From the NCBI GenBank assembly GCA_002328495.1, contig DCUJ01000009.1, positions 97,180 to 161,179 on the forward strand: 64,000 nucleotides of DNA, given 5' to 3'. The notes below the pieces were generated by a model that was given only the letters and a program-made list of their open reading frames with translations, did not search any database and was not told the origin of the DNA. This DNA is from Sulfurospirillum sp. UBA2217 (GTDB lineage: Bacteria; Campylobacterota; Campylobacteria; Campylobacterales; Sulfurospirillaceae). Positions 1-62,305 of the stretch are shown here, piece by piece (position 1 is the stretch's first letter; each line of letters begins with the position of its first letter). The position numbers and the translations under genes were made by a program.

Positions 1-1730
1 GAGGCTTCATAAATAGCTTCAAATGTTCCAAGTGTTGCGAGTAGCTTTTTTAAGATAGCGTGACCAATTCCTTTGGATGCTAAGAGATTCATCTGTAAAT
101 CATGGCTTCTTTTTTTCTTTTGATGGTAGGCAATGGCAAAACGGTGTGCTTCATCGCGTAAACGTTGGAGAAATTGCAAACGTTTATCACTTGTGGGAAG
201 AGTGAAACAATGCGTACCGTGCCACACACGATCGTTTGCACTGCCTTTGGCACGGTGTGCTTTAGCATCAATTTTTTCTTTGGCAATGGCTAATACAGGG
301 AGGTCATACTGATGCGCTTTTAATAGAGTATGAGCAAGGATTAAGAGGGTTTCACCTCCATCTAAAAGCCACATATCAGGTGGTGGTTCTTTGTCAAAAT
401 CACCCATTCTTCGCTCAAGCATCTCTTTCATCTGAGCGTATTCATCCTTGTGATGTAACGCATAGCGGCGATACGAGGCTTTTTGAAATCCATTTTCCCA
501 AACCACCATAGCCCCCACAGGACTCTCTCCTCCTAAGTGTGAATTGTCAAAAACTTCGATGCGAGAAGGTGTGTGATGCAGGTCAAATAAGGTACAAAGC
601 GATTCACACACATTTTCAGTGCTTTTTGAACGCATGGATTCTAAAAGGGTGAATGCATTTTCTTGTGCTATTTGCGTCAAATAATATTTTTCACCTCGTT
701 TTGGAATACTAATGTCTATTTTCTGAGCAAACTTTTTGCTTAAGAAGTGTTCCATCTCTTTGTGGTCATTAAAATGTTCTGCTACTAAAATATGGTGAGC
801 AACACTTTGATGCATAGGGTTGTAAAATTCAAATAAAGCACGTTGGTACAGCTCGTCTTTATCAAATCCATAGGCATTGTTTACAATAGAATGTGATGTT
901 GAAACGATTTTGCCCTCACGCACAAACAGACGCATAATGCTTGCCATCTTGCCTTCAATAGCAAGCGCAAAAACATCGTAATTTTCCAAACTCAGAAGCT
1001 CGACATGCGTTACATGTAAGGTTTGTTTCAAATGGTTTAAAATATCTCGTAAAATAACAGCTTCTTCAAAATTGAGTTTAAGAGACGCCGCGTGCATTTT
1101 AGCGTTTAATGAAGCAATCAGTGTTCGTGGTTCACGCAATGCCACAAGGGCTTCTTGGACAATGTGTGCATACGCTTGGGGTTCTATTTTCCCTTCACAC
1201 GGGGCTAAACACCGTTTGATTTGGTAAAAAAGACAGGCTTTTTTACCTTGGACGCATCGGCGTTTTTGTACCAAAGGAAATACAAGATATAGAGCATCCA
1301 AGAGGGCTTTGGCTGAGCTTGAGAAAGGTCCAAAATAGCGTCTATTTTTATCATCAATCACTTTACGTGTTATCTCAAAACGCGGGAAACTCTCTGCGAG
1401 ATTGATGGTGATATACGGGTACGTTTTATCGTCACGTAGAAGGATATTATATTTTGGTTTTAATTGTTTGATGAGGGAGTTTTCTAAGATCAGAGCGTCG
1501 TGTTCGCTTTGGACGACAACATACTCTATGCGGTGTATTTCCAAAACCATTTTGTGAATACGGGATGATAAAGTGGGGGCTGGGCTTGGAGGAGTTGTGA
1601 GGCGAAAGTAACTTTTGACACGGTTTTTAAGGACTTTAGCTTTTCCCACGTACAATAACATACCAGTATGGTCGAAAAATTGGTAAATCCCAGCACTTTG
1701 TGGGGCATTTCTAAGCTGTTGGGTGATCAT
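1..1730 (-). CDS. uvrC: Excinuclease ABC subunit C (3' end runs off the left edge; not in the ORF track)
   Basis: Manual translation from ATG at 1730 gives MITQQLRNAPQSAGIYQFFD...LYVGKAKVLKNRVKSYF (GIY-YIG). The same frame carries ENSLIKQLKPKYNILLRDDKTYPYI and, near the left edge, LRDEAHRFAI...KGIG (HhH). Confidence 0.97.
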   Translation of the reverse strand, partial: MITQQLRNAPQSAGIYQFFDHTGMLLYVGKAKVLKNRVKSYFRLTTPPSPAPTLSSRIHKMVLEIHRIEYVVVQSEHDALILENSLIKQLKPKYNILLRDDKTYPYITINLAESFPRFEITRKVIDDKNRRYFGPFSSSAKALLDALYLVFPLVQKRRCVQGKKACLFYQIKRCLAPCEGKIEPQAYAHIVQEALVALREPRTLIASLNAKMHAASLKLNFEEAVILRDILNHLKQTLHVTHVELLSLENYDVFALAIEGKMASIMRLFVREGKIVSTSHSIVNNAYGFDKDELYQRALFEFYNPMHQSVAHHILVAEHFNDHKEMEHFLSKKFAQKIDISIPKRGEKYYLTQIAQENAFTLLESMRSKSTENVCESLCTLFDLHHTPSRIEVFDNSHLGGESPVGAMVVWENGFQKASYRRYALHHKDEYAQMKEMLERRMGDFDKEPPPDMWLLDGGETLLILAHTLLKAHQYDLPVLAIAKEKIDAKAHRAKGSANDRVWHGTHCFTLPTSDKRLQFLQRLRDEAHRFAIAYHQKKKRSHDLQMNLLASKGIGHAILKKLLATLGTFEAIYEA

Positions 1731-2169
1731 GGTGTGTTGAAATTGTCTCTTTGATGGCTTCAAAAAGAGCATTTAATTTTGGGTCTTGGCACGTGTTAGC
1801 AAAGCATCCGCTTGCTCTTTCTGTGTATGTGATGGGTGATGTCGATGGGGTGGGTGTCTCTTTTTCTATTTGGTTCGTGACAAAACTTTGAATTTCTTTT
1901 ACATGTAAGCACTCACACTCTGGGAAATGGATAATAATTTGGCTTAATAGACTCTTTATTAAACTCCGTTTATAATTGAATTCCATTTTGCCAGCGGGAT
2001 GTGAGAGCACAAAAAAGAGTGTCTCATTTTTCGTATAGACAAATCGAACGAGCGTTGTAAAACTTTTAGGAAGCAAACCAAGCAATCGTTCAAAACAGCG
2101 CAAGTGCGCAAATTTTTTCATAGAAGGGTCTTGTACCAAATGAGATATTATACTTTTAGCGTCTTTCAT
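1711..2169 (-). CDS. Conserved hypothetical protein, Cj1247c-like; possible DUF721/DciA-like domain
   Basis: 152-aa ORF overlapping the uvrC start, in the position of the C. jejuni hypothetical gene upstream of uvrC. The LFFVLSHPAGKMEFNY segment resembles DUF721. Confidence 0.75.
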   Translation of the reverse strand: MKDAKSIISHLVQDPSMKKFAHLRCFERLLGLLPKSFTTLVRFVYTKNETLFFVLSHPAGKMEFNYKRSLIKSLLSQIIIHFPECECLHVKEIQSFVTNQIEKETPTPSTSPITYTERASGCFANTCQDPKLNALFEAIKETISTHHDHPTA

Positions 2170-2184: not shown

Positions 2185-2284
2185 TGTTTAGGCTTTAGCA
2201 TTTTAGGCTGTGGTTACAAAGGTTCTCCTGTTTATAAAGAGACATCTTCTTCTGTTAAAACTCCTAGTAAGAGTTAATTACGGT

Positions 2285-3739
2285 ATGAAAACATCGTACG
2301 ATGTCGTTATCGTTGGCACGGGTATTGCAGGGCTTCATTGCGCTTTGAACTTACCCAAACACTTAAGTGTGCTTCTTGTTGCCAAAGATTACGCTTGGGA
2401 ATGTAACACCTTTTATGCCCAAGGAGGCGTTGCTGTTGCCAAAGATGAAGCGGATATTGCTTTACATGTAAGCGATACGCTTCATGCGGGAGCAGGGCAT
2501 TGCGTCAAAGAAGCGGTGGATGTGTTGTGCTCCGAGGGACCCAAAGCCATTGCTTCATTGATTAAAAGAGGATTTTGCTTTGATAGCGATGAAAAGGGAG
2601 ACCTTTTATACACCAAAGAAGCAGCACACAGCACCCATCGCATTTTGCATGCAGGCGGTGATGCCACGGGTCGACACATTCATCTGTTTATGATGCAACA
2701 TCTCCCTTTTCCCATTTTATACAATACCCAAGTGACAGATTTATTGATGCATGAAAACACCTGTTATGGCGTTCGTGTATTACACGCAGGAGATATAATT
2801 AATCTTTATGGCAAAAAAGTGGTCATTGCTAGTGGTGGGGTGGGCTCTTTGTATGAGTACCATACGAATGCACGCACCATTAGTGCCGATATGCAAGGTA
2901 TGTGTTTGAGTCATAGCATAGAGCTTGCCGATATGGAGATGATGCAGTTTCATCCTACCGCATTTGTTTTAGGCACCGCGGTGCGTAAACAGTTGCTCAG
3001 CGAATCTTTGCGAGGGGAGGGTGCAAAGGTTGTGGATGATGAGGGCAGACGTTTTGTGTTTGATTATCACCCTGATGGTGAGTTGGCACCTCGTGATGTG
3101 GTGAGTCGTGCTATTTTCGATTATAAGCAAAAAAGTGGCAAAGAGGTTTATTTGGATGTGAGTGATTTTGAAGAGAGTCATTTTCAAAAGCGCTTTCCAA
3201 GCATCTATTTTAATATGAAAAATATCGGTTACAATCTCCCCTCAGAACGTATTCCCATCTCTCCCGCCTTTCACTACTCCATGGGAGGTATTCGTACCAC
3301 TATGAATGGCGAAGTGTTACATGTAAAGCATTTGTATGCCATAGGTGAAGCGGCACATACGGGTGTGCATGGAGCAAATCGCTTGGCGAGTAATTCGCTC
3401 TTAGAAGGATTGGTTTTTTCGTACAGAGCAGCTTTAGATATTCAAGCGACGCTTTCAAACGCATCTTCAGTTATCTCCTTTTCAGAAAAAGAGGCTATAC
3501 TTATTTGCGAAGGCGATAAAATTCTCAAAAATGAACTGCGTCATTTGATGTGGTGTCACGCAGGAATCGTACGCAATGAGCAAAACTTGCAGTTTGCACG
3601 CAAACGGGTAAAAGAAATGCTAGAATTGCCCATTGGAAAATTGTTACGCTTAAGGCTTTTAGTTTCACAAGAGATTATTCAAAGTGCATTAAAACGAAAA
3701 GCGTCATTAGGCGCACATTTCATACAAAAGAGGAGTTGA
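2285..3739 (+). CDS. nadB: L-aspartate oxidase
   Basis: DVVIVGTGIAGL FAD-binding motif, TFYAQGGVA, EAAHSTHRILHAGGDATG, QFHPT, LAPRDVVSRAI, HYSMGG, GVHGANRLASNSLLEGLVF. Start moved to MKTSYD at 2285. Confidence 0.97.
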   Translation: MKTSYDVVIVGTGIAGLHCALNLPKHLSVLLVAKDYAWECNTFYAQGGVAVAKDEADIALHVSDTLHAGAGHCVKEAVDVLCSEGPKAIASLIKRGFCFDSDEKGDLLYTKEAAHSTHRILHAGGDATGRHIHLFMMQHLPFPILYNTQVTDLLMHENTCYGVRVLHAGDIINLYGKKVVIASGGVGSLYEYHTNARTISADMQGMCLSHSIELADMEMMQFHPTAFVLGTAVRKQLLSESLRGEGAKVVDDEGRRFVFDYHPDGELAPRDVVSRAIFDYKQKSGKEVYLDVSDFEESHFQKRFPSIYFNMKNIGYNLPSERIPISPAFHYSMGGIRTTMNGEVLHVKHLYAIGEAAHTGVHGANRLASNSLLEGLVFSYRAALDIQATLSNASSVISFSEKEAILICEGDKILKNELRHLMWCHAGIVRNEQNLQFARKRVKEMLELPIGKLLRLRLLVSQEIIQSALKRKASLGAHFIQKRS

Positions 3740-3743: not shown

Positions 3744-5096
3744 ATGAAGGTATTATTGGTGTTGTTGGCATTCGTCAACACGATTTGGGCAGCTGGAGGG
3801 GGTCAAGACTTGACAACTTCGTGGATTGGTCTTGTTTGTTTGGTTATTTTTGTGGTGGGTTACTATGCGGTAGCCGCTGAGGAGCATTATCATATCAATA
3901 AAGCAAAACCGGCTTTATTTATGGGTACCTTTATGTTTGTCTTGATTGGTATTTACTACGCTATCAATGGGATGGATGCAACGGGTTTACGTTCAGAAGT
4001 TCAACATCTTATCTTAGAAATCTCTGAGATTTTTTTCTTCTTGTTGGTGGCGATGACCTATATTGAAGTGTTAATTGAGCGTCGTGTGTTTGATACGCTC
4101 AAATACAACCTTGTTTCCAAAGGCTACAGTTATAAAAAACTCTTTTGGATGACAGGTTTTATAGCCTTTTTTCTAAGTCCTGTTGCCGATAACTTAACGA
4201 CAGCGTTGATTCTTTCAACGGTTTTAATTACGATTGAAAAAGAAAACAAAAGCTTCTTGGTTCCTGGAGCTATAAACATTGTTGTAGCAGCCAATGCAGG
4301 TGGTGCATGGAGTCCGTTTGGTGACATTACCACGTTGATGGCATGGATGGCAGGTAAAGCGCCTTTTATTGACTTCTTTTATCTTTTCCCCGCTTCGATT
4401 ATCGGTTGGGCTCTCACTGCATGGTTATTATCCCTTTACGTGCCAGCAGATAAACCTCACTTTGATGTCTCTACAGAGAAAAAAGTTACGATTTTAACAG
4501 GTGGTAAAGTGGTTATTGCCTTAGGTGTTACAACCATTGCTTCAGCTGTTTTGTCACAACAAGTGCTCAATATTCCTCCTATGTGGGGTATGGTGTTTGG
4601 TTTGTCTTTACTTAAATTGTACAGTTATCGCTTGAAGCGCAAACAAGGTCAGGAACTTAGTACGTTTAAAGCCATCGGTAAAATAGAACACGATACTTTG
4701 CTCTTTTTCTTTGGTATTTTAGCTGCTGTTGGTGCATTACACTTTTTGGGCTATTTAGGGCTTGCTGTAAAGCTGTACGATACGTTAGGCCCAACCACGG
4801 TCAATATTGGGGTTGGATTTTTATCGGCCATCGTGGATAACGTACCGGTCATGAGTGCTGTTTTAAAATCAAATCCAGATATGGGAATGGATCAGTGGCT
4901 ACTGGTTACCTTGACTGCTGGAATTGGTGGTAGTTTAATTAGCTTTGGTTCGGCTGCAGGTGTAGGTGTTATGGGAAAACTAAGAGGTATTTATACCTTT
5001 GGTTCTCATATGAAATATTCGTGGACGGTTCTTGTGGGATACATCCTTTCATTAATTGTTTGGTATGTTCAGTTTGAGATTTTAGGTTTTTATTAA
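3744..5096 (+). CDS. nhaD: Na+/H+ antiporter, NhaD family
   Basis: Polytopic membrane protein with AEE...NKAKPAL, DNLTTAL, VVAANAGGAWSPFGDITTLM, SAIVDNVP and AGIGGSLISFGSAAGV. Confidence 0.9.
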   Translation: MKVLLVLLAFVNTIWAAGGGQDLTTSWIGLVCLVIFVVGYYAVAAEEHYHINKAKPALFMGTFMFVLIGIYYAINGMDATGLRSEVQHLILEISEIFFFLLVAMTYIEVLIERRVFDTLKYNLVSKGYSYKKLFWMTGFIAFFLSPVADNLTTALILSTVLITIEKENKSFLVPGAINIVVAANAGGAWSPFGDITTLMAWMAGKAPFIDFFYLFPASIIGWALTAWLLSLYVPADKPHFDVSTEKKVTILTGGKVVIALGVTTIASAVLSQQVLNIPPMWGMVFGLSLLKLYSYRLKRKQGQELSTFKAIGKIEHDTLLFFFGILAAVGALHFLGYLGLAVKLYDTLGPTTVNIGVGFLSAIVDNVPVMSAVLKSNPDMGMDQWLLVTLTAGIGGSLISFGSAAGVGVMGKLRGIYTFGSHMKYSWTVLVGYILSLIVWYVQFEILGFY

Positions 5097-5123
5097 TAGT
5101 TTTGGTTTACATGTAAAAGGAAA

Positions 5124-6662
5124 ATGATGAAAGAAGTCCCTATTTTAGTCTTAGATTTTGGTTCGCAATACACTCAGTTGATTGCACGCAAATTACGAGA
5201 GAGTGGTGTGTATTGTGAGATTGTACCTTACAACGAGAAAATTGAAGATATCAAAAAGAGAAACCCTAAAGGAATCATTCTTAGTGGTGGTCCTGCATCG
5301 GTGTATGCAAAAGACTCCTACCACCCTGATGAGGCGGTGTATGCATTGGGACTTCCGATTTTAGGCATTTGTTATGGGATGCAACTTTTAACCCAACATT
5401 TTGGGGGAAGTGTCATCCCTGCAACGCATCAAGAATATGGCAAAGCAGAACTTCAATTTGAAAGCGACCCTAAAATTTTCAAAGACACCAAATGCGGACA
5501 AATTGTTTGGATGAGCCATGGGGATAGAGTAGAAGCGTTGCCAAAAGGTTTTGAGAAAATCGGTTACAGTGAAAATTCACCGTATGCGGCTATTGCCGAT
5601 GAAAAACGCAATATGTACGCATTTCAATTTCACCCAGAAGTTTACCACTCAGAACAAGGAAGCAAACTCTTAAAGAATTTTGCAAAATACATCTGTGGCT
5701 GTGAAAGTACATGGAATATGGGCTCGTTTGCTAAAGAACAAATTGCAAAAATAAGAGCACAAGTAGGCGATAAAAAAGTATTATGTGGCGTCAGTGGTGG
5801 TGTAGACAGTTCCGTAGTTGCAACCCTTTTAGCCGAAGCCATTGGCGATAAACTGGTTTCAGTTTTTGTCGACAATGGACTCCTTCGTGCCAATGAGAGA
5901 GAACAAGTCGAAGCGATGTTTAAACAACGTGGTGTTCCTTTAATCACGGTGGATGCGAGTGAGCAGTTTTTAAGTCGTCTAAATGGGATCACTGACCCTG
6001 AGATGAAGCGAAAAATTATTGGTGAAACTTTTATTCAAGTCTTTGATGAAGAGGCTAAAAAGCACGATGGAATCCAGTTTTTAGCGCAAGGGACACTTTA
6101 CACCGATGTTATCGAATCGGTTTCGGTTAAAGGCCCTTCAAAAACCATTAAATCGCATCACAATGTTGGAGGCTTGCCTGATTGGATGACGTTTGAGCTC
6201 ATTGAGCCTCTTCGTGAAATTTTCAAAGATGAAGTGCGCATTTTAGGAGCAGAACTAGGGCTTCCAAAAGAGATGTTGGGTCGTCATCCATTCCCAGGTC
6301 CTGGTCTTGCGATTCGTATTATGGGGGAAGTGACAAAAGACGATTTAAAACTTCTTAGAGCCGCCGATGTGATTATGCTTGAAGAGCTTCGTGCGACAGG
6401 CTATTATGATAAAACATGGCAAGCCTTTACCGTACTATTAAACGTCAAAAGTGTTGGTGTTATGGGCGATAACCGAACGTATGACAACACCATATGTGTG
6501 AGAATCGTGGATGCTACCGATGGAATGACTGCTACATTTGCACACATTCCTCATACGATTTTGGAAAATATTAGCAGACGTATTATCAATGAGGTCAATG
6601 GCATTAACCGTGTCGTGTATGATATCTCTTCAAAACCACCTGCAACGATTGAATGGGAATAA
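5124..6662 (+). CDS. guaA: GMP synthase (glutamine-hydrolysing)
   Basis: [55 protein letters not shown]. Confidence 0.99.
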
Positions 6663-7303
6663 TGCAGACACCTATCTACCTCTTCAGCGATCAAACGTAT
6701 GAAGGGGTAGTTTCCTTACCTCTTTTTGAAATTCTTTTTCTCCCCTTTGGAGTTGACATTAGCCCTTTTGATGCTCTCATCTTTACCTCTAAAAGCAGTG
6801 TTAAAGCACTTGAACAAAGTCATATACCATGGCACAATAAGCGTTGTTATGCCATTGGTGAAGGCACGGCAAAAGCTATTGAAGATGCAGGGGCACAGGT
6901 ATTCTTTACATGTAAAGAATCGTATGGAGATGTATTTGCCCGTGAGCTTGCCCCAATGTTGGGGGGAAAAAAAGTTTTTTTCCCCCGTGCGAAAGAAGTT
7001 GTTTCCCCGTTGTATGAGATTTTATGTGAGGCAGGCATTGATATAATCCAAGCAGTAGTGTATGAAACTGTGTGTCGTTCTTACCCACTCCATGAAGCAC
7101 CTCCTTCTGAAGCCCTTTTGATTTTTGCATCTCCCTCTACAGTGCACTGTTTTTGTAAGAATTTTACGTGGGATGTGAGCTATAAAGCCATTGCTATTGG
7201 TAAAAAAACAGCAGCCGTTTTACCTTCACATGTAAAGGTTTTTTTAGCAGAAAAACAGACGATTGCTTCGTGTATTGATTTGGCAAAGCAAATTAGAAGC
7301 TAA
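6662..7303 (+). CDS. hemD: Uroporphyrinogen-III synthase
   Basis: LIFTSKSSV, YAIGEGTA, VVYET, IFASPSTV, IAIGKKTA. TAATG coupling with the guaA stop. Confidence 0.88.
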   Translation: MQTPIYLFSDQTYEGVVSLPLFEILFLPFGVDISPFDALIFTSKSSVKALEQSHIPWHNKRCYAIGEGTAKAIEDAGAQVFFTCKESYGDVFARELAPMLGGKKVFFPRAKEVVSPLYEILCEAGIDIIQAVVYETVCRSYPLHEAPPSEALLIFASPSTVHCFCKNFTWDVSYKAIAIGKKTAAVLPSHVKVFLAEKQTIASCIDLAKQIRS

Positions 7304-7559: not shown

Positions 7560-8828
7560 ATGAAAGTGATGATTGTTGGTAGCGGAGGAAGAGAATATTC
7601 GATAGGTTTGGCACTGAAAAAAGACCCCAAGGTTAGCGAACTTTTTTTTGCCCCTGGAAACGGAGCAACGCCACAGTTAGGAACAAACGTGAGCTTCCAT
7701 AATTATGAAGCCTTGGCAAGTTTTGCACAAGAACAGAGGGTCGATTTGACCGTTGTTGGTCCTGAAGATGCTTTGGTTGCAGGCATCGTTGATATTTTTA
7801 AATCCAAAGGCTTGGTGATTTTTGGTGCGTCTAAATCGGCTGCTAGACTTGAAGGCTCTAAGATTTTTATGAAAAATTTTCTCTCACGTTATGCTATTCC
7901 CACTGCACGCTTTATTGAAACCTGTGACGCACAAAAAGCGTATGACTTTATCGAAACACTACCCTTGCCTATCGTCGTAAAAGCGGATGGTTTGTGTGCG
8001 GGCAAAGGCGTCATCATCGCACAAAGTAAAGAAGAAGCAAAAGAGGCTGTCAACGATATGTTAAGCGGCAAAAGCTTTGGCGATGCGGGACTGGGTGTTG
8101 TGGTTGAAGAGTTTTTAGATGGTTATGAGCTTTCAGTCTTTGTGATTTGTGACGGAGTCGATTATAAAATCCTCCCAGCAGCACAAGACCATAAGCGCCT
8201 CTTGGACAATGATATAGGCCCTAACACTGGCGGTATGGGTGCGTACGCTCCAACGCCACTCATCGATGAGCTTCTCTATAAAAAAGTGGAAGAGCGTGTG
8301 GTGAGACCAACGTTAAAAGGGATGCAAGATGAAAATGCTCCGTTTGAGGGTGTTTTATTTATCGGTTTGATGGTTGTGAACAATGAGCCGATTGTTTTAG
8401 AATACAATGTGCGTTTTGGTGATCCTGAGTGTGAAATTTTAATGCCCCTTTTAAAGACGCCTGCACGTGAACTTTTTTACAAAGCAGCTACCAAAGATTT
8501 GAAAAACCTTAACATTGAATTTTATAACAAATACGCTATTGCTGTCGTGATGGCGAGTGAAAATTATCCGTATGGAAGTTCAAAACCTTCTGAGATTATC
8601 GTTGATACCTCCGTGCATGAAGGCTTGGAAGATACACACATTTCGTATGCAGGTGTGAGCTTGGAAGAGGGTACATTGTACGCAACAGGTGGACGAGTAC
8701 TTTTGTGCATAGGTGTTGGTGATACTATTAAAGAGGCGAGAGAGCGTGCTTATTTGTTGTGCGGACAGGTGCATTTTGCGGGTAAACAATTCCGAAGTGA
8801 CATTGCATATCAGGCTTTAAAGCAATGA
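7560..8828 (+). CDS. purD: Phosphoribosylamine-glycine ligase
   Basis: [55 protein letters not shown]. Confidence 0.99.
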
Positions 8829-9280
8829 CCAACGAAGAGTTAATTGAAAAATTTGAAAGTGAAAACATCACGTTAGCTTCTGTGCGCAAAAGAAGTTTAG
8901 CATACATTATTGATGAGATTTTAATTTCACTGCTGTTTATTTTTATCTATCTTGACCAAATTCCTCAAGATGCTACGACCGAGCAGACCATTGGTATTAT
9001 TAACAGTATGGTGATGTATGTGATGATTTTAAAAGTGGTCTATCAAACCTTTTTTGTGTGGATGTACGGTGCAACTTTGGGACGAATAGCAATGAAAATC
9101 AAGGTTATTTCAACGCAAGATTTAGAAAATCCAACACCGCTTTTATCTCTCACCAGAGCCTCCTTTCGTATTGTCAGTGAATCACTTTTTTATTTAGGAT
9201 TTGTATGGGCGATGCTCAATCCAAAACGGGAAACATGGCATGATAAAGTTGCAAGTACATTGGTTGTCAATGCTGGGTAA
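8825..9280 (+). CDS. RDD family membrane protein
   Basis: [13 protein letters not shown]...GATLGR...[11 protein letters not shown] (RDD signature). Confidence 0.92.
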
Positions 9281-11375
9281 AATTTGTGTAGGACTCATTC
9301 TTTTGTTAAGTAGCCTTTGGGCTGTTGAACCTCAAGTACAAGATATTGAACTTTTGGCTCAAAATGTTACAAAAGAGGGAAGTATTGCGCATGCTGTCGG
9401 GAGTGTCGTTGTTTATAGCCCTAAGTATCTTATCACTGCTGATGAGGCATTTTACAACTACGAGTCAGGTGATTTGGAACTGTTTGGCAATATCACGATG
9501 TTAGAGGGTGTGAGTTACGCTTCTCGCAGTGGACATACTAAACTCAATCTTAAAACAGATCACGGTGTTTCTGATCCACTTTTTTTCTTTGACGAAACGG
9601 CAAATTTGTGGTTAAAATGTGACAACGCTATCTTAAGCCCAGAATCTTATATTACCCAAAAAGCAATCGTTTCGAGTTGTAACAGTCAAGACCCAGATTG
9701 GAAAATAGCTTTTAGTACGGGTGAGTACAACAAAGAAGAAAAATGGATGCACTTGTATAACCCTGTTTTTTATGCAGGGGAGACACCTTTTTTCTACCTT
9801 CCCTATTTTTCATTTTCCACGGATACAACAAGGCGAACAGGGCTATTAAGACCGGATATTGGATTTGGAAGTGAAGGACTTTTTTATTTACAACCCATCT
9901 ATTTTGCCCCTGCGGTTGATTGGGATGTAGAAGTGACTCCTCAAATACGAACCAGTAGAGGAGAAGGGATTCATACAACTTACCGTTTTGTAGACTCACC
10001 ATACTCCTCTGGCGAAATCATAACAGGATATTTTAAAGAAAAAAGCGATTATGCAGAAGAAAAAAATTTAAAGCATGATCAACACTATGGTTTCAAAATG
10101 AGTTATGATAGGAGTGCTCTTTTAAGTACGCAAGACAAGACGATAGAAGATGGATTATGGGTAAATTTGAACTATATTAATGATGTGGATTACTATAATA
10201 CTATCAATGATAAAATTAAAGCCTATAACAAGCTAGTGACTTCCCAAGTTAATTATTATGCAAAAAGAGATGAAGATTATATTGGAATTTATGGAAAGTA
10301 TTATATTGATACGTCATTGGTTTCAAATGATACAACATTGCAACAGCTTCCAACGTTTAATTATCATCGATTTGCAAATCCTTTTTTGTTTGATAATTTA
10401 CTCTATTCTATTGACTACAATGCAAAAAATTACAGTCGAGTAGAAGGTGTAACAGCCTTTCAAAATGAAATCAGCACCCCTTTTGCGCTTCATTTTTCAT
10501 TTTTGGAAGATTACTTACATGTAAGCCTATCTGAAAATATCTATATGACGCATGTTTCGTACGGCAATGGCGCAGAAGATGGAAGCTATGGTCAATATTT
10601 TAATAACTATCATAAAGTGAGTATGTATGTAGATCTTGCTAAAGCTTACGATCATTTTTTTCATACCCTTTATTTTGGGATAGAACAAACACTTCCAAGT
10701 TATCGTAAACAACAAGGCACGTGGGACTATTCTTATGGAGCAAATGATTTAATTCCTCTTACCATGGAAGAAAAAAATACGGCTTTCAAATTAAAACAAT
10801 TTTTTTATGATTCTGAAGGTGAAAAAAAAGTAACGCATACACTTAAACAAACCTATTACAGTGAGCATGATTATAAATACGGTGATTTGGAGAATGATGT
10901 TAAGATTTATGTGACACCAGCATTTAGTATTACTAATAATATTTTGTATTCTCATGAGTATGCGCAACTGGCTCGCACCCAAACGTCTGTAACCTATAAA
11001 GATGATATTTACAGTGCAACCGTTCGGTATACTTATCAAGATACCCCTACAAACACAAGTGGTTCTTTGTCGAGCAAGAATTATAACTATTTGACCCTTC
11101 TTGCGAGTACAGAATATTTTGAAAAATTCAATATGTTTGCTTCTGTGAATTATGATTTGAACGATGATGTGTTTAAGTCATGGAGTTTTGGTGTTAAAAA
11201 ATTGAAAAAATGTTGGGATTATTCCATTACATATAAGGATTTAACCCTTCCTAGTCTTACAAGTTCTGGTGCGGATTCGGTTAATCGACAAGGGGTTATG
11301 TTGTTGTTTAATTTTTATCCTTTGGGGGCTATTGATTATGAAATTACGACATCTGAAACAGAACAAAAATTGTAA
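9270..11375 (+). CDS. lptD: LPS-assembly outer-membrane protein LptD
   Basis: Signal peptide, SSC...PDW, PFFYLPYFSF, RRTGLLRP, PIYFA and an aromatic-rich beta-barrel with KCW near the C-terminus. Position matches Cj1252. Confidence 0.92.
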   Translation: MLGKICVGLILLLSSLWAVEPQVQDIELLAQNVTKEGSIAHAVGSVVVYSPKYLITADEAFYNYESGDLELFGNITMLEGVSYASRSGHTKLNLKTDHGVSDPLFFFDETANLWLKCDNAILSPESYITQKAIVSSCNSQDPDWKIAFSTGEYNKEEKWMHLYNPVFYAGETPFFYLPYFSFSTDTTRRTGLLRPDIGFGSEGLFYLQPIYFAPAVDWDVEVTPQIRTSRGEGIHTTYRFVDSPYSSGEIITGYFKEKSDYAEEKNLKHDQHYGFKMSYDRSALLSTQDKTIEDGLWVNLNYINDVDYYNTINDKIKAYNKLVTSQVNYYAKRDEDYIGIYGKYYIDTSLVSNDTTLQQLPTFNYHRFANPFLFDNLLYSIDYNAKNYSRVEGVTAFQNEISTPFALHFSFLEDYLHVSLSENIYMTHVSYGNGAEDGSYGQYFNNYHKVSMYVDLAKAYDHFFHTLYFGIEQTLPSYRKQQGTWDYSYGANDLIPLTMEEKNTAFKLKQFFYDSEGEKKVTHTLKQTYYSEHDYKYGDLENDVKIYVTPAFSITNNILYSHEYAQLARTQTSVTYKDDIYSATVRYTYQDTPTNTSGSLSSKNYNYLTLLASTEYFEKFNMFASVNYDLNDDVFKSWSFGVKKLKKCWDYSITYKDLTLPSLTSSGADSVNRQGVMLLFNFYPLGAIDYEITTSETEQKL

Positions 11376-53610: not shown

Positions 53611-53715
53611 TGAAACCTTTACATGTAAAAGAAATAAGCTAAATTATACAGAATGGAAGCATAAAAAAAGGGCTTGTTTGATACAATAAAGAGACTATTT
53701 TTGAAGGATATTTTT

Positions 53716-54126: not shown

Positions 54127-54962
54127 ACCAGTACTTACTCGTAGGCGAAGTCAATCGCCTTAAAATCAACCGCTACACGGACAACGGCGTTTATCTTATC
54201 TGTACTGACAATGACGAAGTGCTCATGCCCAATCAATACGTTACGTATGGAATGAAAGAGGGCGATGAAATTGACGTGTTTGTCTATTTTGACTCGGAAG
54301 ATCGTATCGTGGCAAGTACGGTGTTTCCTAAAGCCATGTTAGACCAATTTGGCTGTTTTGAAGTGGTCGATGTCACCTCTTTTGGGGCATTTTTGGATTG
54401 GGGTTTGCCCAAAGATTTACTCGTACCCAAAGCGCTTCAAAAGTTTCCCTTTTATGTGGGGATGAAAGTGGTGGTGCGGGTCTGTTTGGACGATGAGAGC
54501 GGACGCATCATCGGAAGCCAAAAGTATAACGATGATTTGAGTAAGGATTTAAAATCACTCAAACTCAAACAAGAGGTCAACCTTTTGGTGAGAGAGCGCA
54601 CACCCCTTGGCTTTAAAGTGATTGTCAATAACCTCTACGATGGGATGATTTTTCACAATGAGATTTTTGAGAGCATCGAAGTGGGAGATGAAAAAAAAGG
54701 CTTTATCAAAACCTTACGACCCGATGGAAAGCTTGACATCATCTTGCAACCCGTGGGAGATAAAAGCGATGAATTTGCGATGCAAAAGGTCTTAGAACTT
54801 CTTAGCCTCACGGGAGGGGTGAGTGATTTGACCTATAAAAGTGAGCCTGAGGAGATTTCACAGCGTGTTGGTCTTAGTCGTAAAGCCTTTAAACGTGCCC
54901 TTACGAAACTTATCGACGCTAAAAAAATTGAAGTGACGTTAGAAGGTATGCGGCTGTTATGA
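54123..54962 (+). CDS. CvfB-family S1-domain RNA-binding protein
   Basis: VFVYFDSEDRIVAST, FGAFLDWGLPKDLLVP, GMIFHNEIF, LRPDGKLD, GLSRKAFKRAL. Confidence 0.92.
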   Translation: MNQYLLVGEVNRLKINRYTDNGVYLICTDNDEVLMPNQYVTYGMKEGDEIDVFVYFDSEDRIVASTVFPKAMLDQFGCFEVVDVTSFGAFLDWGLPKDLLVPKALQKFPFYVGMKVVVRVCLDDESGRIIGSQKYNDDLSKDLKSLKLKQEVNLLVRERTPLGFKVIVNNLYDGMIFHNEIFESIEVGDEKKGFIKTLRPDGKLDIILQPVGDKSDEFAMQKVLELLSLTGGVSDLTYKSEPEEISQRVGLSRKAFKRALTKLIDAKKIEVTLEGMRLL

Positions 54963-56176
54963 ACGTAGCGATTATCGGAGGAGGAGCGTCGGGACTGGTC
55001 TGTGCTATTGAAGCAGCACGAGGGGGACATCGTGTCAGCGTGTTTGAAAAAAATGCCAAACTGGGGCGCAAAATCTTAGCTACGGGAAATGGCAAGTGCA
55101 ATATCTCCAATCTTCACTTAAATCCCACTCGCTATCATGGGGAATTTCCACAGTTTGTCACGCCTATTTTAAAACGCTTTAATACCCTTACATGTAAAGA
55201 TTTTTTTCGCACACTTGGTCTTGAGATGCGTGAGGGTGAAGCGGGAAGACTTTACCCCATGAGCCATCATGCGTCAAGTGTTGTGGATATCTTGGTGCAT
55301 GAGGCTAGAGAGCTTGGTGTGAAGTTTTTGTGTGAAAGCGAAGTGAAACGCATAGCACACAAAGGTGAGCAGTTTGAGTTACATGTAAACGACCAAACCT
55401 CCCTTTTTGATGCGTGTGTCATCGCCTCAGGAAGCTTTGCGTATCCGAGTTTAGGAAGCTCTGGAAGTGGCTATGCGTTTGCAAAATGCTTGGGTCATAC
55501 CGTGATAGAACCCTACCCAACGTTGGTGCAACTCTTAAGCGATGAAGCACACCTAAGCCTTGCCAATGGGGTCAAGATAGACGCTGGCGTAGAGCTGTTT
55601 GTGAGTGGTACGATGAGGCAACGGGTGCAAGGCGATGTCTTGTTTACCACCTATGGACTCTCAGGTTCTGCTATCTTAGATATCAGCCGTGCTGCCTCAC
55701 GCGCATGTGTCGAAAATGAGCCGTCGTGGGTCGTGCTTGATCTGCTCCCAACCTTTAGCAAAGAAGCCGTGCAATCCTTACTTCAAAAACGCTTAGCCTA
55801 CGCAGGGAAAAAATCACTCATTTTATGGCTAGAGGGCATCATTCCTAAAAAATTGGCACTTTTTCTCATTCATGCTAACACATTAGAACACCTCACATCC
55901 GCCTCACTCCTAAGCCCAAAAGAGCTTAAAAGACTCTGCTTTTCGCTGAAGGCATTACGCTTACATGTAAAGGGAACCAAAGGCTTTGAAAGTGCCGAAG
56001 TGTGCTCTGGAGGCGTGGATGTCAGAGAAGTGGATGAAAAAAGTTTGATGTCAAAAAAAGTGAAAAATCTCTACTTTTGTGGGGAAGTCTTAGACATCGA
56101 TGGGGATTGCGGAGGGTTCAATCTGCACTTTGCGTGGGGTTCGGGCTACGTGGTAGGACAGAGCATCAAAGCGTAG
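54959..56176 (+). CDS. HI0933/YhiN-family flavoprotein oxidoreductase
   Basis: IIGGGASGL, GRKILATGNGKCNISN, GRLYP, LFTTYGLSGSAIL, AEVCSGGV, GEVLDIDGDCGGFNLHFAWGSG. Confidence 0.95.
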   Translation: MNVAIIGGGASGLVCAIEAARGGHRVSVFEKNAKLGRKILATGNGKCNISNLHLNPTRYHGEFPQFVTPILKRFNTLTCKDFFRTLGLEMREGEAGRLYPMSHHASSVVDILVHEARELGVKFLCESEVKRIAHKGEQFELHVNDQTSLFDACVIASGSFAYPSLGSSGSGYAFAKCLGHTVIEPYPTLVQLLSDEAHLSLANGVKIDAGVELFVSGTMRQRVQGDVLFTTYGLSGSAILDISRAASRACVENEPSWVVLDLLPTFSKEAVQSLLQKRLAYAGKKSLILWLEGIIPKKLALFLIHANTLEHLTSASLLSPKELKRLCFSLKALRLHVKGTKGFESAEVCSGGVDVREVDEKSLMSKKVKNLYFCGEVLDIDGDCGGFNLHFAWGSGYVVGQSIKA

Positions 56177-57396: not shown

Positions 57397-57729
57397 TTAC
57401 TTTGAAATTGTGATGAGTTTATAATAACCCAAGAAGAGAAGGGAGGCACATTTTAAGCAATAGTAAAAAAAATCTTTTGGTGCGACATAGAGGATGATTC
57501 GAAACTCTTTTATGGTACGAGCTTTGAGCTGTAGCCAACAAAATCGAAACAAAGAAAAACGATTTTTGCGGTGGAGTAAAAATGCTGTGTGCGGATAAGA
57601 GGCGATAGCCATCATCTCTTCAATGCGATTACTCACCAAAAGAGTGCCTTTTTGCGCGCTTACATGTAAGGCTTCGTGCGTGGACATGATAAGCGGTTTA
57701 AGACGTCCCTTTTCAAAGCAATACAGCAT
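57397..57729 (-). CDS. Hypothetical protein
   Basis: 110 aa. ATG directly after the upstream gene's stop, with AAGGAG RBS. Confidence 0.6.
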   Translation of the reverse strand: MLYCFEKGRLKPLIMSTHEALHVSAQKGTLLVSNRIEEMMAIASYPHTAFLLHRKNRFSLFRFCWLQLKARTIKEFRIILYVAPKDFFYYCLKCASLLFLGYYKLITISK

Positions 57730-59145
57730 CTAAGCTCCTTTTCGAACAGCACGGATGAGGTTGTTTGCCATCCCTTTGAAGACAAAAAAATGTAAAGGGA
57801 TAAGTACAAACCAATAAAGCCTTCCAGCTAATCCATGCGGGTAAAAGTAAGCGGTTTGGTAAAAATGCCCCTCTTGAATGAGAAATTCTAACCATGCAAT
57901 GCCAGGAAGCTTCATCTGCGCAAAGAGCAAGAGGCGTTTCCCCTCTTGCAAATCCACTACCTTCCAAAAATCGACACTATCGCCGATGCGTAAATGCAAA
58001 GGATCTCGTCTACCACGGGAGAGTCCATAGCCACCCACAAGTTTGTCAATAGCCCCTCGCATACGCCACAAAATATCAAAACCAAACCAGCCACGTTTAC
58101 CGCCTACACTGCAAAACATTTGGTAAACATCTGGTGCTTCGCTTGGAGCGATGGCGATGATTTGTCGGTCTGAAAAAATGGCATTGGCAAGGTCATTGTG
58201 GTTGACTTCCCACGCATGACCTGAAGCGTCTGACCAACGGCTGATGACTTGTTCATGTTTGATTTCATCGACAGCGTTTGCGACGGCTTCTTCGTACGAG
58301 ATGGGAATGATGGTTGGGAACAGTGTGCGTGCATGGTCATTTTTGATAAGTACCTCACTCTTAAGTCCTTCGATAAGTGCGGAAGCAATAGAATAGGGTA
58401 CGGGCGTCATGAGGGTGAGCCAATACGAGGAGAGTTTTGGCGTAAAAAAAGGTACAGGAATAAGCGTTCGACGAAGTCCTACGACGTTAGCATAGCCCAA
58501 GAGAAGTTCTTTATAAGAGAGCACTTGGGAGCCAATATCGATGATGGTATTGCCCGTTTTGGGTAAAAAAGCTGCAAGGCAAAGGTATTCTATCACATCG
58601 TTTTGTGCACTGGGTTGGCAGAGTGTATTGACCCATTTTGGAGTGATCATAAAAGGGAGCTTCTCGACCAAATGGCGGATAATTTCAAAACTAGCAGACC
58701 CAGAGCCTATGATAACGCCCGCACGAAACCACAGGGTTTCAATGGCATCGGGACGTGAACTTAGAACTTCACCCACTTCGATGCGTGAGAGTAAGTGCTC
58801 ACTGGCACTCTGTTTTTCGCCAAGCCCCCCAAGATAAACAATACGCTTTACGCCTTGCATGATACATGCGTCCAAAAAGTTTTGAGCACTTTGTCGATCG
58901 CGTTCGCGGTAGTTGGCACTCTCCATCGAATGAATCAAATAATACGCTACATCAATGCCTTGAAGGGCAGCATTGAGACTGGGAATATCAAAGGTATTGC
59001 CCGTACACACTTCGATACCATCTTTAACAGATGAACTTTTGTCTCGTTTCATAAAAAGCCTAAGTGTGCCCTCTTTTTCACTCGATAAACGGTGCTTAAG
59101 CCGTCTTCCGATATACCCAGTAGCCCCTGTGATGAGAATGTTCAT
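57730..59145 (-). CDS. SDR/NAD(P)-binding protein with DUF2867 C-terminal domain (YbjT-like)
   Basis: ILITGATGYIG, VAYYLIHSM, IVYLGGLG, HLLSR, FRAGVIIGSGSASFE, LRIGDSVDFWKV, AQMKLPG.AWLEF, G..GRLYW. Confidence 0.92.
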   Translation of the reverse strand: MNILITGATGYIGRRLKHRLSSEKEGTLRLFMKRDKSSSVKDGIEVCTGNTFDIPSLNAALQGIDVAYYLIHSMESANYRERDRQSAQNFLDACIMQGVKRIVYLGGLGEKQSASEHLLSRIEVGEVLSSRPDAIETLWFRAGVIIGSGSASFEIIRHLVEKLPFMITPKWVNTLCQPSAQNDVIEYLCLAAFLPKTGNTIIDIGSQVLSYKELLLGYANVVGLRRTLIPVPFFTPKLSSYWLTLMTPVPYSIASALIEGLKSEVLIKNDHARTLFPTIIPISYEEAVANAVDEIKHEQVISRWSDASGHAWEVNHNDLANAIFSDRQIIAIAPSEAPDVYQMFCSVGGKRGWFGFDILWRMRGAIDKLVGGYGLSRGRRDPLHLRIGDSVDFWKVVDLQEGKRLLLFAQMKLPGIAWLEFLIQEGHFYQTAYFYPHGLAGRLYWFVLIPLHFFVFKGMANNLIRAVRKGA

Positions 59146-59879: not shown

Positions 59880-60908
59880 CTAAAAGGCGCGTGCGTAAGC
59901 AGGCTCAATGGACGTTTTGTCGCCACTCTCTTTCATGAAAAACTGTACCATATTGGGACTACGTAAAAGTTCCCTTCCATACGCCACCAAATCACATACT
60001 CCTTCTTTCAAAAGTGTTTCACCTTGTTCTTGGGTGGTGATGAGACCCACCGCAATGGTTGGTATGGCACTCTTTTCTTTGATACTGCGTGCATAGTCCG
60101 TTTGGTAGGAGGGTACCAATGGGGGAATAAGCGTTTGTTTCGCATGATTACCGCCCGCAGAGACATGCATCATGGAAACACCGATGTCATGGAGTTTTTG
60201 AGACAGATAGAGCGAATCGTTGATGTTCCAACCTCCCTCCATCCACTCATCCGCAGAGAGTCGTACGATGAGAGGAAGTGGTACGGCTGTTAAGATAGCC
60301 TCACATACTTTGATGAGAAGTTTGCATCGGTTTTCCAAGCTTCCGCCGTAGCGGTCCGTGCGAACGTTGGTTAAAGGGGAGAGAAATTCACCCAGTAAAT
60401 AGCCATGTGCACCATGAAGTTCTAACACGTCATAGCCTGCTTTGTGCGCGCGTTTAGCCGCTTCCACAAAAGCGATAATAATCTCTTCTATCTCCATATT
60501 GCACAGGGCAATGGGTGTTTTAAATCCACCTGTATCGCTAAACAAAAGAGGACTTGGGGCAACGGGGATGGAAGATTTGCAGATGCTTTTACGCCCAGCA
60601 TGCGCTAGCTGAATTGCCATAGTTGCACCAAGTTCATGAACGATTTTGACCAGTTTTTGATGTCCCTCTATCTGCGCATCATTCCATAGTCCAAGATCAT
60701 TGTCAGTGATGCGCCCACGAGGTTCAACCGCTGTGGCTTCAACGATGATAAGCCCAACGCCTCCAATGGCACGCGCGCCATAGTGTGTTTCATGAAAGAG
60801 TGTCACACATCCATCTTCTTCCGCTTTGTACATACACATAGGGGGCATGACCACTCTGTTTTTAAGAGAAATGTTTCCAAGGGGGTAAGGCGTAAAAAGT
60901 AGACTCAT
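59880..60908 (-). CDS. NADH:flavin oxidoreductase, Old Yellow Enzyme (YqjM/NamA-like)
   Basis: LKNRVVMPPMCMY, HYGARAIGG, IQLAHAGRK, ELHGAHGYLLGEFLSP, NVRTDRYGGSLENR, GRELLRSP, YARA. Confidence 0.95.
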   Translation of the reverse strand: MSLLFTPYPLGNISLKNRVVMPPMCMYKAEEDGCVTLFHETHYGARAIGGVGLIIVEATAVEPRGRITDNDLGLWNDAQIEGHQKLVKIVHELGATMAIQLAHAGRKSICKSSIPVAPSPLLFSDTGGFKTPIALCNMEIEEIIIAFVEAAKRAHKAGYDVLELHGAHGYLLGEFLSPLTNVRTDRYGGSLENRCKLLIKVCEAILTAVPLPLIVRLSADEWMEGGWNINDSLYLSQKLHDIGVSMMHVSAGGNHAKQTLIPPLVPSYQTDYARSIKEKSAIPTIAVGLITTQEQGETLLKEGVCDLVAYGRELLRSPNMVQFFMKESGDKTSIEPAYARAF

Positions 60909-62305
60909 TGTTTGTCTCCTAATAGATTTTTTTCATTCCAACCGCTTCCGAGTGCTTTGAAAAGTTCTGCTTGCGAAACAAGGTAAGCTTGTTGGGATGT
61001 TGTGGCATTGAGGCGTGCCATAAGTAGCCCTTTTTGTGCGTCCAAAACTTCAAGATAACTGATGGAACCCGCATTAAAGCGTTTTGTACTGATGTGAAGT
61101 GATCTTTCGTAAGCCGCAATTTCATCTTCATGTGTACGCACTTTTTCTTTTAGAATTGCATGGCGTCCAAGGGCATCGCTAATCTCTTTGTAAGCTTTTT
61201 TTACAGTTTGTTCGTAACTTTCCAGTGCGATTTTAAGCTCTGTTTCGGAAATGCTAACACGTGCTTTAATGCGTCCAAAATCAAAAATAGGCACAGACAA
61301 AGAGGGACCAAAACTCCATCGATTTGCACTGGATTGTAAGATGTTATCTAGGCTTTCGCTTTGTTGTCCATAACTTCCCGTTAAACTAATACTTGGAAAA
61401 TAGGCGGCTTTTTCTACTCCGATGAGTGCATTTTTACTTTTTAAGGTAAAGAGGGCTTCTTGAATGTCAGGACGACTTTCTAAGATAGAAGAGGGAATGC
61501 CTTTGGGAATAGTGATGGCTTTTGGCAATGCGTTGATTCGTGTTGCGTTCGCTTCAAAGAATGCTTTAGGACTTTTCCCTAATAGGAGCAAAAGAGCATT
61601 TTCTTGTAGTTTTTTGCTCTCTAATAGAGTCGATTGTGTGGTGAGTGTACTAAGGTATTGTGCCTTTGCTTGGGCAACAAGCAATTCATTGATCGTTCCA
61701 CGTTCGTGTTGTTTGAGACGAAATTCATAGGCAGCTTTATAGGTTTGAATGGTTTCATCTACGATATTGAGGCGTACAGACAAGGAAACGAGGTTAAGGT
61801 AGGATGAAATGGTATCATGAATCAATGTATTTTTAACCGTTTGTGCGGCAGAAGCTGAAGCTAAGTAAAGCTCCCAGTTGGACTCCGCTTGTGAGCTTAA
61901 TTTTCCCCAAAAATCGATTTCATAGCTTAGATTTAATGCCATGGCATTATCGGTATACAACGAGCGGTTATGCTGATACGTTTCAGCACTGGTTTGTTGT
62001 CGTGTTGAGCCTGCATTTGCGTTGAGGCTTGGGTACAGTGTGGCATCACTCAGACCATATGCTTGTTTGGCTTTAAGAATGCGAAGTGCGGAGAGTTTGA
62101 TGTCATAATTGGATTGTAATGCCTCAGCAACGAGTAAATTGAGTGACGCATCACCAAAATTTTCCCACCAAGTGGCATTTACATGTAAGGTATTCTCTTC
62201 GCTTATAGGCAGTTCCATCGAAGGCACATTGAGGTCTGGCTTAAGGGAGCATCCACCTAAAAAGAGCAAGGAAGAGAGAGAAAAAATTAAGATATTACGC
62301 TGCAT
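60905..62305 (-). CDS. NodT/CmeC-family efflux outer-membrane lipoprotein
   Basis: Lipobox LFLGGC, WWENFGD, SYEIDFWGK, LESRPDIQ, AAYFPSISLTG, VPIFDFGR, YLEVLDAQ, LFKALGSGW. Confidence 0.93.
   Translation of the reverse strand: MQRNILIFSLSSLLFLGGCSLKPDLNVPSMELPISEENTLHVNATWWENFGDASLNLLVAEALQSNYDIKLSALRILKAKQAYGLSDATLYPSLNANAGSTRQQTSAETYQHNRSLYTDNAMALNLSYEIDFWGKLSSQAESNWELYLASASAAQTVKNTLIHDTISSYLNLVSLSVRLNIVDETIQTYKAAYEFRLKQHERGTINELLVAQAKAQYLSTLTTQSTLLESKKLQENALLLLLGKSPKAFFEANATRINALPKAITIPKGIPSSILESRPDIQEALFTLKSKNALIGVEKAAYFPSISLTGSYGQQSESLDNILQSSANRWSFGPSLSVPIFDFGRIKARVSISETELKIALESYEQTVKKAYKEISDALGRHAILKEKVRTHEDEIAAYERSLHISTKRFNAGSISYLEVLDAQKGLLMARLNATTSQQAYLVSQAELFKALGSGWNEKNLLGDKQ

Follow-up and report, generated by a model that had tools for sequence, protein, structure and literature searches.

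What maintains a ten-letter palindrome at high copy number throughout a bacterial genome? The question is raised by a 64,000-nucleotide stretch of DNA from Sulfurospirillum sp. UBA2217, referred to here as the window (C12:97180-161179, on one of the 13 contigs of a 2.42-Mb assembly, G000, with 39.5% G+C). It contains 26 exact copies of the palindrome TTACATGTAA, the first beginning at position 1010 and the last ending at 62188, and this word is a DNA-level, lineage-specific signature that is made by substitution and is missing from acquired DNA. To our knowledge such hyper-abundant genome words are few, namely the highly iterated palindrome HIP1 of cyanobacteria, the DNA uptake sequence (DUS) of Neisseriaceae and the uptake signal sequence (USS) of Pasteurellaceae, and the reason for HIP1 has stayed open for 30 years.

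Abundance and anatomy of the palindrome

The number of copies in the window and their coordinates are identical to those reported in a first-pass annotation of the same DNA, and dinucleotide-preserving shuffles of the window contain a mean of 0.17 copies with a maximum of one, close to the ~0.2 copies and the more than 100-fold enrichment estimated there. ACATGT hexamers, which had been put at about 40, number exactly 40 (19.6 in the shuffles), and copies with one mismatch number ten rather than the eight first counted, seven of them deviating at position 1 or 10 alone. The excess is not confined to the window: the whole 2.42-Mb genome contains 934 copies compared to 3-11 expected from Markov models of orders 0-4. 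The spacing is even, at one copy per 2.5-2.8 kb on each contig longer than 30 kb, in keeping with the rate of about one per 2.5 kb first noted in the window, and the commonest 8-, 10-, 12-, and 14-mers of the genome are sub-words of the motif. With genes called throughout as crude longest open reading frames (ORFs; 92.6% coding), coding DNA contains 658 copies, but 50±7 after within-gene shuffling of synonymous codons, which preserved every protein and the codon usage of each gene. A codon effect is therefore excluded, and the enrichment is real and genome-wide.

The eight inner positions of TTACATGTAA form an essentially invariant core, TACATGTA; the 24 possible inner one-off variants occur 1-14 times each, approximately the random expectation, against the 934 perfect copies. 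Position 1 accepts C (80 copies) and position 10 accepts G (81), and TTAGATCTAA is one example of a one-off form. The symmetry that the first-pass annotation had noticed in the flanks is borne out genome-wide, with C at position -2 in 52% of copies, T (55%) or C (29%) at -1, and an A-rich segment from -8 to -4, all mirrored on the 3' side. The full form thus approximates AAAAA-N-C-T/C-TTACATGTAA-A/G-G-N-TTTTT, with a footprint of ~26 bp for the palindrome and its symmetric AT-rich arms; CTTTACATGTAAAG occurs 110 times in the genome, and AAAAAGCTTTACATGTAAAGCTTTTT is the form of the word proposed for test DNA. The A-rich arm also flanks intragenic copies and is therefore part of the word and no by-product of stop codons. 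Among copies genome-wide there is no conserved sequence past about ±8 nt, so they are not fragments of a longer repeat. A miniature inverted-repeat transposable element (MITE) is rejected on the same ground, and because orthologous sites differ by substitutions.

The palindromes are nested, with CATG in ACATGT in TACATGTA, and deviations are concentrated at the outer positions, just as one-nucleotide deviations of HIP1 cluster at its first and last positions (PMC4390886). Both features would suit an explanation of the kind advanced for HIP1 (Elhai 2015), in which the CATG/ACATGT core is marked by a methyltransferase and sequences close to the word are turned into it by mismatch repair that is guided by the methylation. 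However, one-off variants show no depletion, with ~115 observed and ~110 expected at random, which argues against a converter feeding on near-matches; together with the distribution of the relevant enzymes, described below, this makes the explanation improbable.

The architecture also could reflect an abundant dimeric DNA-binding protein, such as a nucleoid-associated protein, a roadblock or a gene-end factor, with selection for its function in cis and decay of the sites when the protein is lost. The perfect 10-14-bp palindrome, the symmetric AT-rich arms and the ~26-bp footprint fit a protein of this type, as does the need for all eight inner positions, one-off forms being at background.

Inside genes lie 658 copies (70%), with a flat distribution along gene length, and about 272 (30%) are intergenic, where the density is 5-fold higher. 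The frames used in genes are the two that stay open, with 411 copies read as TTA-CAT-GTA (Leu-His-Val) and 234 as xTT-ACA-TGT-AAx (Thr-Cys-Lys/Asn), and Leu-His-Val and Thr-Cys-Lys are found 4.9-fold and 7.6-fold above amino acid expectation, respectively. Because TTACATGTA encodes 87% of the Leu-His-Val tripeptides, and VHL and KCT, the same tripeptides reversed, show no enrichment, the word shapes the proteins and not the reverse. Selection for the peptides is rejected on the latter ground and by the synonymous shuffle (50 vs 658).

More than 120 copies start 1-10 nt past a stop codon, with a maximum at +3, and convergent spacers have the highest density (2.8/kb), divergent spacers the lowest (1.0/kb). 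Copies are paired 18-28 bp apart, approximately two helical turns, more often than expected (27 pairs), and paired copies make 10-13-bp stems, such as TTACATGTAAGGAAAAATCCTTACATGTAA, that are followed by T runs. Terminator-like hairpins are present at 89 of the 198 gene ends that have a copy within 40 nt (45%) compared with 33% of those without the word, and the copy lies upstream of the hairpin in 45 instances, overlaps it in 37, and is downstream in seven. The post-stop peak, the stems with their T runs and the surplus of hairpins would all favor a role at the RNA level, with UUACAUGUAA in transcripts serving at the 3' ends of genes as a signal for processing, stability or termination. But most copies are in coding sequences, pairing does not extend into a stem at 174 of 276 intergenic copies, and an RNA signal does not need to be a palindrome on both strands; we regard this role as extremely improbable. 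Since most single copies are stemless and many copies are in operon spacers too short for a terminator, the word is at times incorporated into terminators without being one.

The same positional data bear on the DNA-binding protein. The 5-fold intergenic excess, the contrast between convergent and divergent spacers, the post-stop peak and the pairs two helical turns apart are all as might be expected of such a factor. Weighing against it, the 70% of copies that are intragenic and flat along genes are odd for a gene-end factor, many copies sit within operons in those short spacers, and just 37 of the 198 post-stop copies are part of a hairpin.

Distribution, persistence and decay across the genus

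Among named records, the EF-P locus is 99% identical to one from a Sulfurospirillum metagenome-assembled genome and 90% to that of S. cavolei, in agreement with the genus. All 28 species-representative Sulfurospirillum genomes contain the word, at 49-1496 copies, and genomes of 16 other families of the order have 0-6; none is present in the Arcobacter, Campylobacter, and Helicobacter loci compared. A sister group of Sulfurospirillaceae metagenome-assembled genomes (~35% G+C) has the dialect CTCTACATGTAGAG as its repeated word, and S. arcachonense-like genomes contain a mixture of TTACATGTAA and CTCTACATGTAGAG; the core is therefore family-wide, with dialects. A CATG-centred word, TATCATGATA, is presumably present in another Campylobacterales clade. 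We found no published description of the word as a genomic motif in a literature search, consistent with the first-pass annotation, which did not recall one for this lineage.

Species of the genus share 70-80% DNA identity. At 14 window sites compared in up to 30 genomes, the word is kept in 89 of 179 site-by-genome comparisons (50%) with flank identities of 68-83%, whereas ~5% would be expected neutrally at 75%. Where orthologous sites have diverged they differ by substitutions, often synonymous, as in ATT ACA TGT versus ATA ACA TGC, and no indels are seen. Gain of the word continues, since some copies are private to this genome (the copy at 35049 is found in none of 26 aligned species).

In a maximum-likelihood tree built from a single 778-aa marker, midpoint-rooted and with some forks unresolved, the motif-poor genomes G011 (19 copies/Mb), G020 (30), G042 (85), and G001 (107) are nested in a motif-rich clade with G015, G016, G018, G022, G010, and G023, which have 407-499 copies/Mb. 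Other declines are seen in G012/G014 and in G003/G004/G013. Given this nesting among motif-rich genomes, low motif density is, on this tree, derived and has arisen more than once.

The comparison of gene content between motif-poor and motif-rich genomes used one complete motif-poor genome, G011 (2.61 Mb), which also illustrates how the word is lost. It keeps 25 of 572 alignable sites of the UBA2217 genome (4.4%), and per-position identity inside the word (0.62-0.75) is the same as in the flanks (0.56-0.82). Conversely, 23 of 32 alignable G011 copies coincide with a copy in UBA2217 and are ancestral. No replacement word is apparent in k-mer spectra of 400 kb of G011, and half-site remnants are frequent. 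Its proteins have a remaining two-fold excess of Leu-His-Val and Thr-Cys-Lys with randomised codons, and this excess is a fossil of the lost word. The word is thus held at single sites by a force that acts on all ten bases, and lineages in which that force has been lost let it decay neutrally. The strong positional conservation of individual sites would again be compatible with the DNA-binding protein considered above, but repeated loss of nucleoid proteins within one genus is rare and no candidate protein was found. Overall we think this explanation unlikely, although it is the strongest competitor of the interpretation favored below.

The low-GC accessory islands of the UBA2217 genome are without the word, and stretches longer than 11 kb that lack it are mostly low-G+C islands missing from G011. 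The only large motif-free stretch other than accessory islands is C4:36662-52008, a 15.3-kb block of normal G+C with 26 genes, all conserved in G011, in which there are no copies although about six are expected. A complete GspC-D-E-F-pseudopilin type II secretion cluster (C9:43715-53758) lies in a 15.9-kb motif-free stretch and is absent from G011, and for these reasons is probably an acquired island; its location makes it an unlikely driver of the word. Three contigs among the IMG/VR viral contigs, which were scanned for the 14-mer, have host-like densities (L278, four in 4.1 kb; L266, three in 5.4 kb; L281, six in 12.2 kb), and these may be phages or prophages of Sulfurospirillaceae.

The word-free foreign islands, and a density of one copy per 2.5 kb that resembles that of Chi words, are also what a Chi-like recombination signal or self marker for AddAB might produce; being palindromic it would act bidirectionally, protecting native ends and promoting RecA loading. 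An AddA/AddB-like pair is present in this genome, and the same idea has been raised for HIP1 in a preprint (bioRxiv 10.1101/2024.09.10.611283). Nonetheless, known Chi words are short, asymmetric, and enriched only a few-fold, compared to more than 100-fold here, nothing links the word to replication direction, and the G011 AddAB pair is full length with 84-86% identity despite decay of the word, so that a Chi-like role seems quite improbable.

The individual copies in the window illustrate these positions and fates. Those in the Leu-His-Val frame include 1010..1019, in a long minus-strand ORF that extends past the left edge of the window; 2462..2471 and 3317..3326, both in ORF 2210..3739 (+), which codes for an FAD_binding_2 flavoprotein; and 10515..10524 in ORF 9201..11375 (+). 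The copy at 25509..25518, in ORF 24237..26054 (+) coding for a carboxylase/biotinyl subunit, is also in this frame, and is kept in six of 11 aligned species and altered elsewhere by substitutions alone (for example, ACGCATGTAA). A further such copy, 49714..49723, is within a methyl-accepting chemotaxis protein (MCP) gene, 49036..50649 (+). The HI0933-like flavoprotein gene 54959..56176 (+) contains two more in the same frame, 55379..55388 (kept in three of ten, with TTACATGTCA in four others) and 55961..55970 (kept in six of ten), as well as 55188..55197 in the Thr-Cys-Lys frame (kept in six of nine). The copy at 6906..6915 in ORF 6653..7303 (+) is in the x-Thr-Cys-Lys frame, and that at 36770..36779 in ORF 36547..38223 (+) is read as Ile-Thr-Cys-Lys; the latter is kept in eight of 30, and its relatives differ synonymously alone (ATT ACA TGT vs ATA ACA TGC). 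ORF 34371..35660 (+) contains two copies: 34380..34389 occupies codons 4-6, 6 nt past the stop of 32038..34374, and persists in 22 of 24 aligned species, the motif-poor G011, G020, G042, and G001 among them; 35049..35058 (0 of 26 aligned species) is private and a recent gain by substitution.

Many of the remaining copies follow stop codons. The copy at 5107..5116 is 10 nt past the stop of 3744..5096 (+), in a 27-nt spacer ahead of the next gene, 17691..17700 is 44 nt past the stop of 17005..17646 (+), and 20853..20862 is 25 nt past that of 19475..20827 (+). The copy at 28971..28980, 3 nt past the stop of 27390..28967 (+), is kept in nine of 12 aligned species, has a hairpin-forming pair in four, and is decayed in G020 and G042. 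At 30426..30435, 4 nt past the stop of the argininosuccinate lyase gene 29036..30421 (+), a copy combines with a degenerate partner, TTACATCTTA, to make TTACATGTAAGGAGAAAATTCTCCTTACAT. The copy at 42989..42998 is 6 nt past the stop of 41637..42983 (+) and in the first codons of 42980..43792. Two copies 27 bp apart form a pair upstream of efp, of which 47033..47042, 3 nt past the stop of 45353..47029 (+), is kept in nine of ten aligned genomes and 47060..47069 in eight of ten. In the convergent spacer between the MCP gene and a gene for a MutS7-HNH protein, 50656..50665 is 6 nt past the MCP stop and 17 nt past the MutS7-HNH stop; it is kept in seven of nine and has the one-off form TGACATGTAA in motif-poor G042. 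The divergent spacer on the other side has a copy at 53619..53628, 9 nt upstream of the MutS7-HNH start, that is kept in one of ten. The copy at 57660..57669 is 60 nt past the stop of 57730..59145 (-) or within a doubtful 110-aa ORF. By crude calling 1899..1908 and 62179..62188 are both intergenic, the first overlapping a doubtful 152-aa ORF, 1711..2169 (-), and the second at the 5' edge of a long-ORF version of 60905..62383 (-).

Downstream of argH, at approximately 30465-30600 in the window, is a ~135-bp dispersed repeat. All genomes of the genus have it many times over (80-90% identity), and a further copy in this genome, at the least, is at C9:75392-75504. Rfam gives no match to the repeat, which could be a small RNA or a MITE. 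The window also contains a purD RNA motif (90.8 bits) at 7404-7534 (+), upstream of ORF 7560..8828, and one tRNA gene at 14378-14459 (+).

Methylation, uptake and other candidate forces

If the word were a methylation site of the HIP1 type, a cognate methyltransferase should be found wherever the word is abundant. C5-methylases (PF00145) are missing from ten of the 28 genomes, including the complete and motif-rich G018 and G022 (~1230 copies), and an m5C methylase acting with Vsr-type repair is rejected on this basis. The sole PF01555 enzyme of the UBA2217 genome is a Type III Mod with an adjacent Res, relatives of which are absent from the motif-rich G010, G023, G017, G019, G018, and G022; most motif-rich genomes being without a relative, this enzyme too is rejected as the driver. 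The UBA2217 genome has three HsdM-like genes, it has no D12 methylase, and a search for the (D/N/S)PP(Y/F/W) motif (DPPY, NPPY and the like) revealed no orphan N6 methylase in it.

The repair side of that explanation draws on the nicking mismatch protein MutS7-HNH, which is encoded in the window itself (50683-53610, minus strand; 975 aa with MutS domains I, II, III, and V and a C-terminal HNH). The protein has 88-89% amino acid identity across species whose other proteins share ~72%, and its gene has palindrome copies on both sides. It is intact in the motif-poor genomes at this same identity, however, which counts against methylation-guided repair, and MutS7-HNH is rejected as the factor that was lost in motif-poor species. 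The first-pass annotation had proposed a system analogous to HIP1 and DUS; as regards genus-wide occurrence, dialects, conservation of sites, and absence from islands the analogy is supported, but the link to methylation is not, as there is no conserved C5 or beta-class enzyme.

Machinery for DNA uptake is present. ComEC and the secretin are intact in G011, G020, G042, G001, and G015, two prepilin genes adjoin priA, dnaB, and comEC in both UBA2217 and G011, and both genomes have a cluster of genes for the secretin, an AAA_22 ATPase, a TPR protein, a T2SSE protein with an MshEN domain, and T2SSF. The order of this cluster is probably that of C. jejuni ctsD-P-X-E-F. A homology search with the ATPase in the CtsP position found only proteins of Sulfurospirillaceae, annotated as ATP-binding or ExeA, and none connected by name to C. 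jejuni. The prepilins match PDB sequences at pilin N-termini only, and a single-sequence model has a predicted local distance difference test (pLDDT) score of 46. There are two PilT/PilU ATPases in the UBA2217 genome. A screen for disrupted genes in G011 gave convincing hits to one PilT/PilU ATPase and one GGDEF protein only; the former (TIGR01420, 418 bits; G011:C1:240465-241667; locus L161 465-1667) has a CAG>TAG change at codon 189 and is otherwise 84% identical to its intact orthologue at C11:129222-130415 (-). The second PilT paralogue (C12:87192-88259), which is 10 kb to the left of the window, is intact in G011 with 92% identity. The nonsense codon is recent relative to the word's decay and can therefore be no more than a symptom.

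A search of gene content for the responsible factor is not yet selective, as comparison of G000 with G011 yields 339 ORFs without a hit and 232 with weak hits, and these 571 candidates are too many to narrow. ComEC, the secretin and AddAB are rejected as the factor lost in motif-poor species, all being intact there. An IS200/RAYT-like Y1 transposase (RAYT, REP-associated tyrosine transposase, where REP denotes repetitive extragenic palindromic elements) is encoded at C12:68466-69134 (-) with inverted AGTAGCCTGTCCCCTTT repeats, in four copies in this genome and none in G011; having its own GTAG-type inverted repeats and only four copies, it is rejected as the driver. Directly upstream of comEC, a DnaB-like helicase gene (C1:87375-89819) codes for 814 aa here and 476 aa in G011, with flanks 91% identical and a middle of ~338 aa missing from the latter; the insert resembles an intein confined to one of the two species.

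Our tentative interpretation is that the word is a lineage-specific self-DNA tag held by biased uptake or recombination via the pilus/ComEC system. Point substitutions create the word where the DNA tolerates it, in the two open frames, in the post-stop spacer, and as inverted hairpin pairs, and the holding force would be a sequence-specific bias in DNA exchange, in uptake itself or in the steps just after. A dimeric receptor of the transformation machinery might prefer DNA carrying the word, such that alleles with it replace alleles without. This would be a molecular drive of the kind put forward for DUS and USS, and the same preference would disfavor foreign DNA. Competence is dispensable, so the drive can be lost, and repeated, nested motif-poor lineages would follow. 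More specifically, and possible rather than probable, this would be an uptake system in which a 10-14-bp perfect palindrome is the signal, recognized by a dimeric receptor of the Cts-type pilus machine with no need of methylation. We favor uptake because the pattern matches that of DUS and USS, because loss of a dispensable process accounts for the motif-poor lineages, because C. jejuni provides a precedent in taking up only DNA with the methylated palindrome RAATTY (PMC10046745), and because HIP1 is now being linked to transformation (bioRxiv 10.1101/2024.09.10.611283; PMC13756078).

Several observations weigh against uptake. Our literature search found no report of natural transformation in Sulfurospirillum, and the motif-poor genomes examined have an intact ComEC, secretin and pilus cluster, together with both pilins. 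The stop codon in PilT/PilU is a single recent change, which may be a by-product, mere chance or a mistake in the assembly. The known uptake words, DUS and USS, lack symmetry, and a perfect palindrome of 10-14 bp between AT-rich arms is what a dimeric DNA-binding protein of the cytoplasm classically has as its footprint. The genes examined yielded no receptor, ComP-like or otherwise, the pilin model being unusable at a pLDDT of 46, and the preference for the first 10 nt past stop codons could reflect a function at gene ends instead.

Significance and comparison with known systems

The word provides an independent case of hyper-abundance in a different phylum, among culturable, non-pathogenic bacteria that include S. 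multivorans and S. deleyianum, and there are close relatives in which the maintaining force is lost, so the responsible gene can be sought by phylogenetic profiling. The methyltransferase link of HIP1 is apparently absent here, which separates 'iterated palindrome' from 'methylation site'. The word is also a sharp marker of native versus acquired DNA in these genomes, and adding it to constructs might improve genetic manipulation of the organohalide-respiring Sulfurospirillum. If the uptake interpretation is correct, this would be the first classical sequence-encoded uptake signal outside the Neisseriaceae and Pasteurellaceae, it would bridge DUS and USS, the C. jejuni RAATTY system and cyanobacterial HIP1, and several natural knock-out lineages with a decaying word would be available for identification of the receptor.

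Among known systems, HIP1 (GCGATCGC) and the alternate HIPs are like the word in being short, perfect palindromes that are hyper-abundant in genes and spacers (PMC4390886, PMC5861425). Like the word, HIP1 is clade-wide, with replacement words in sublineages, conservation at orthologous sites, and occasional loss from a lineage, and it shares the bias of deviations to the outer positions (80 and 81 at positions 1 and 10 of the word, 1-14 at inner variants). HIP1 differs in being a GC-rich 8-mer, whereas the word is AT-rich and 10-14 bp long with AT-rich arms, and belongs to another phylum; moreover, the word is without a conserved cognate methyltransferase among the C5 and beta-class enzymes surveyed, with D12 absent from this genome.

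The DUS of Neisseriaceae and the USS of Pasteurellaceae are like the word in their density of ~0.4/kb, their specificity to a genus or family, their dialects and their use of permissive frames, and they too are enriched after genes, form inverted hairpin pairs, and are missing from foreign islands. The AT-rich flanks of USS resemble those of the word, and the pilus and ComEC machinery that serves both is also encoded in Sulfurospirillum. In contrast to the word, which is palindromic and has near-matches at background, DUS and USS are asymmetric. The RAATTY system of C. jejuni (CtsM) is closest in phylogenetic terms, being in the same phylum, and the secretin/ATPase/X/T2SSE/T2SSF cluster is found in Sulfurospirillum; but the 6-mer RAATTY is frequent simply because of base composition and functions only after methylation by an orphan enzyme, whereas the word is a rare 10-14-mer for which no conserved methylase was found among the C5 and beta-class enzymes. 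REP/RAYT elements and MITEs are similarly short, palindromic, and dispersed in hundreds of copies, but are 20-150 bp long, extragenic, and spread by insertion, whereas the word is mostly genic and arises by substitution. The word is therefore set apart from the HIP1 family by its lack of a conserved cognate methylase, its AT-richness and its greater length, and from the DUS and USS families by being palindromic.

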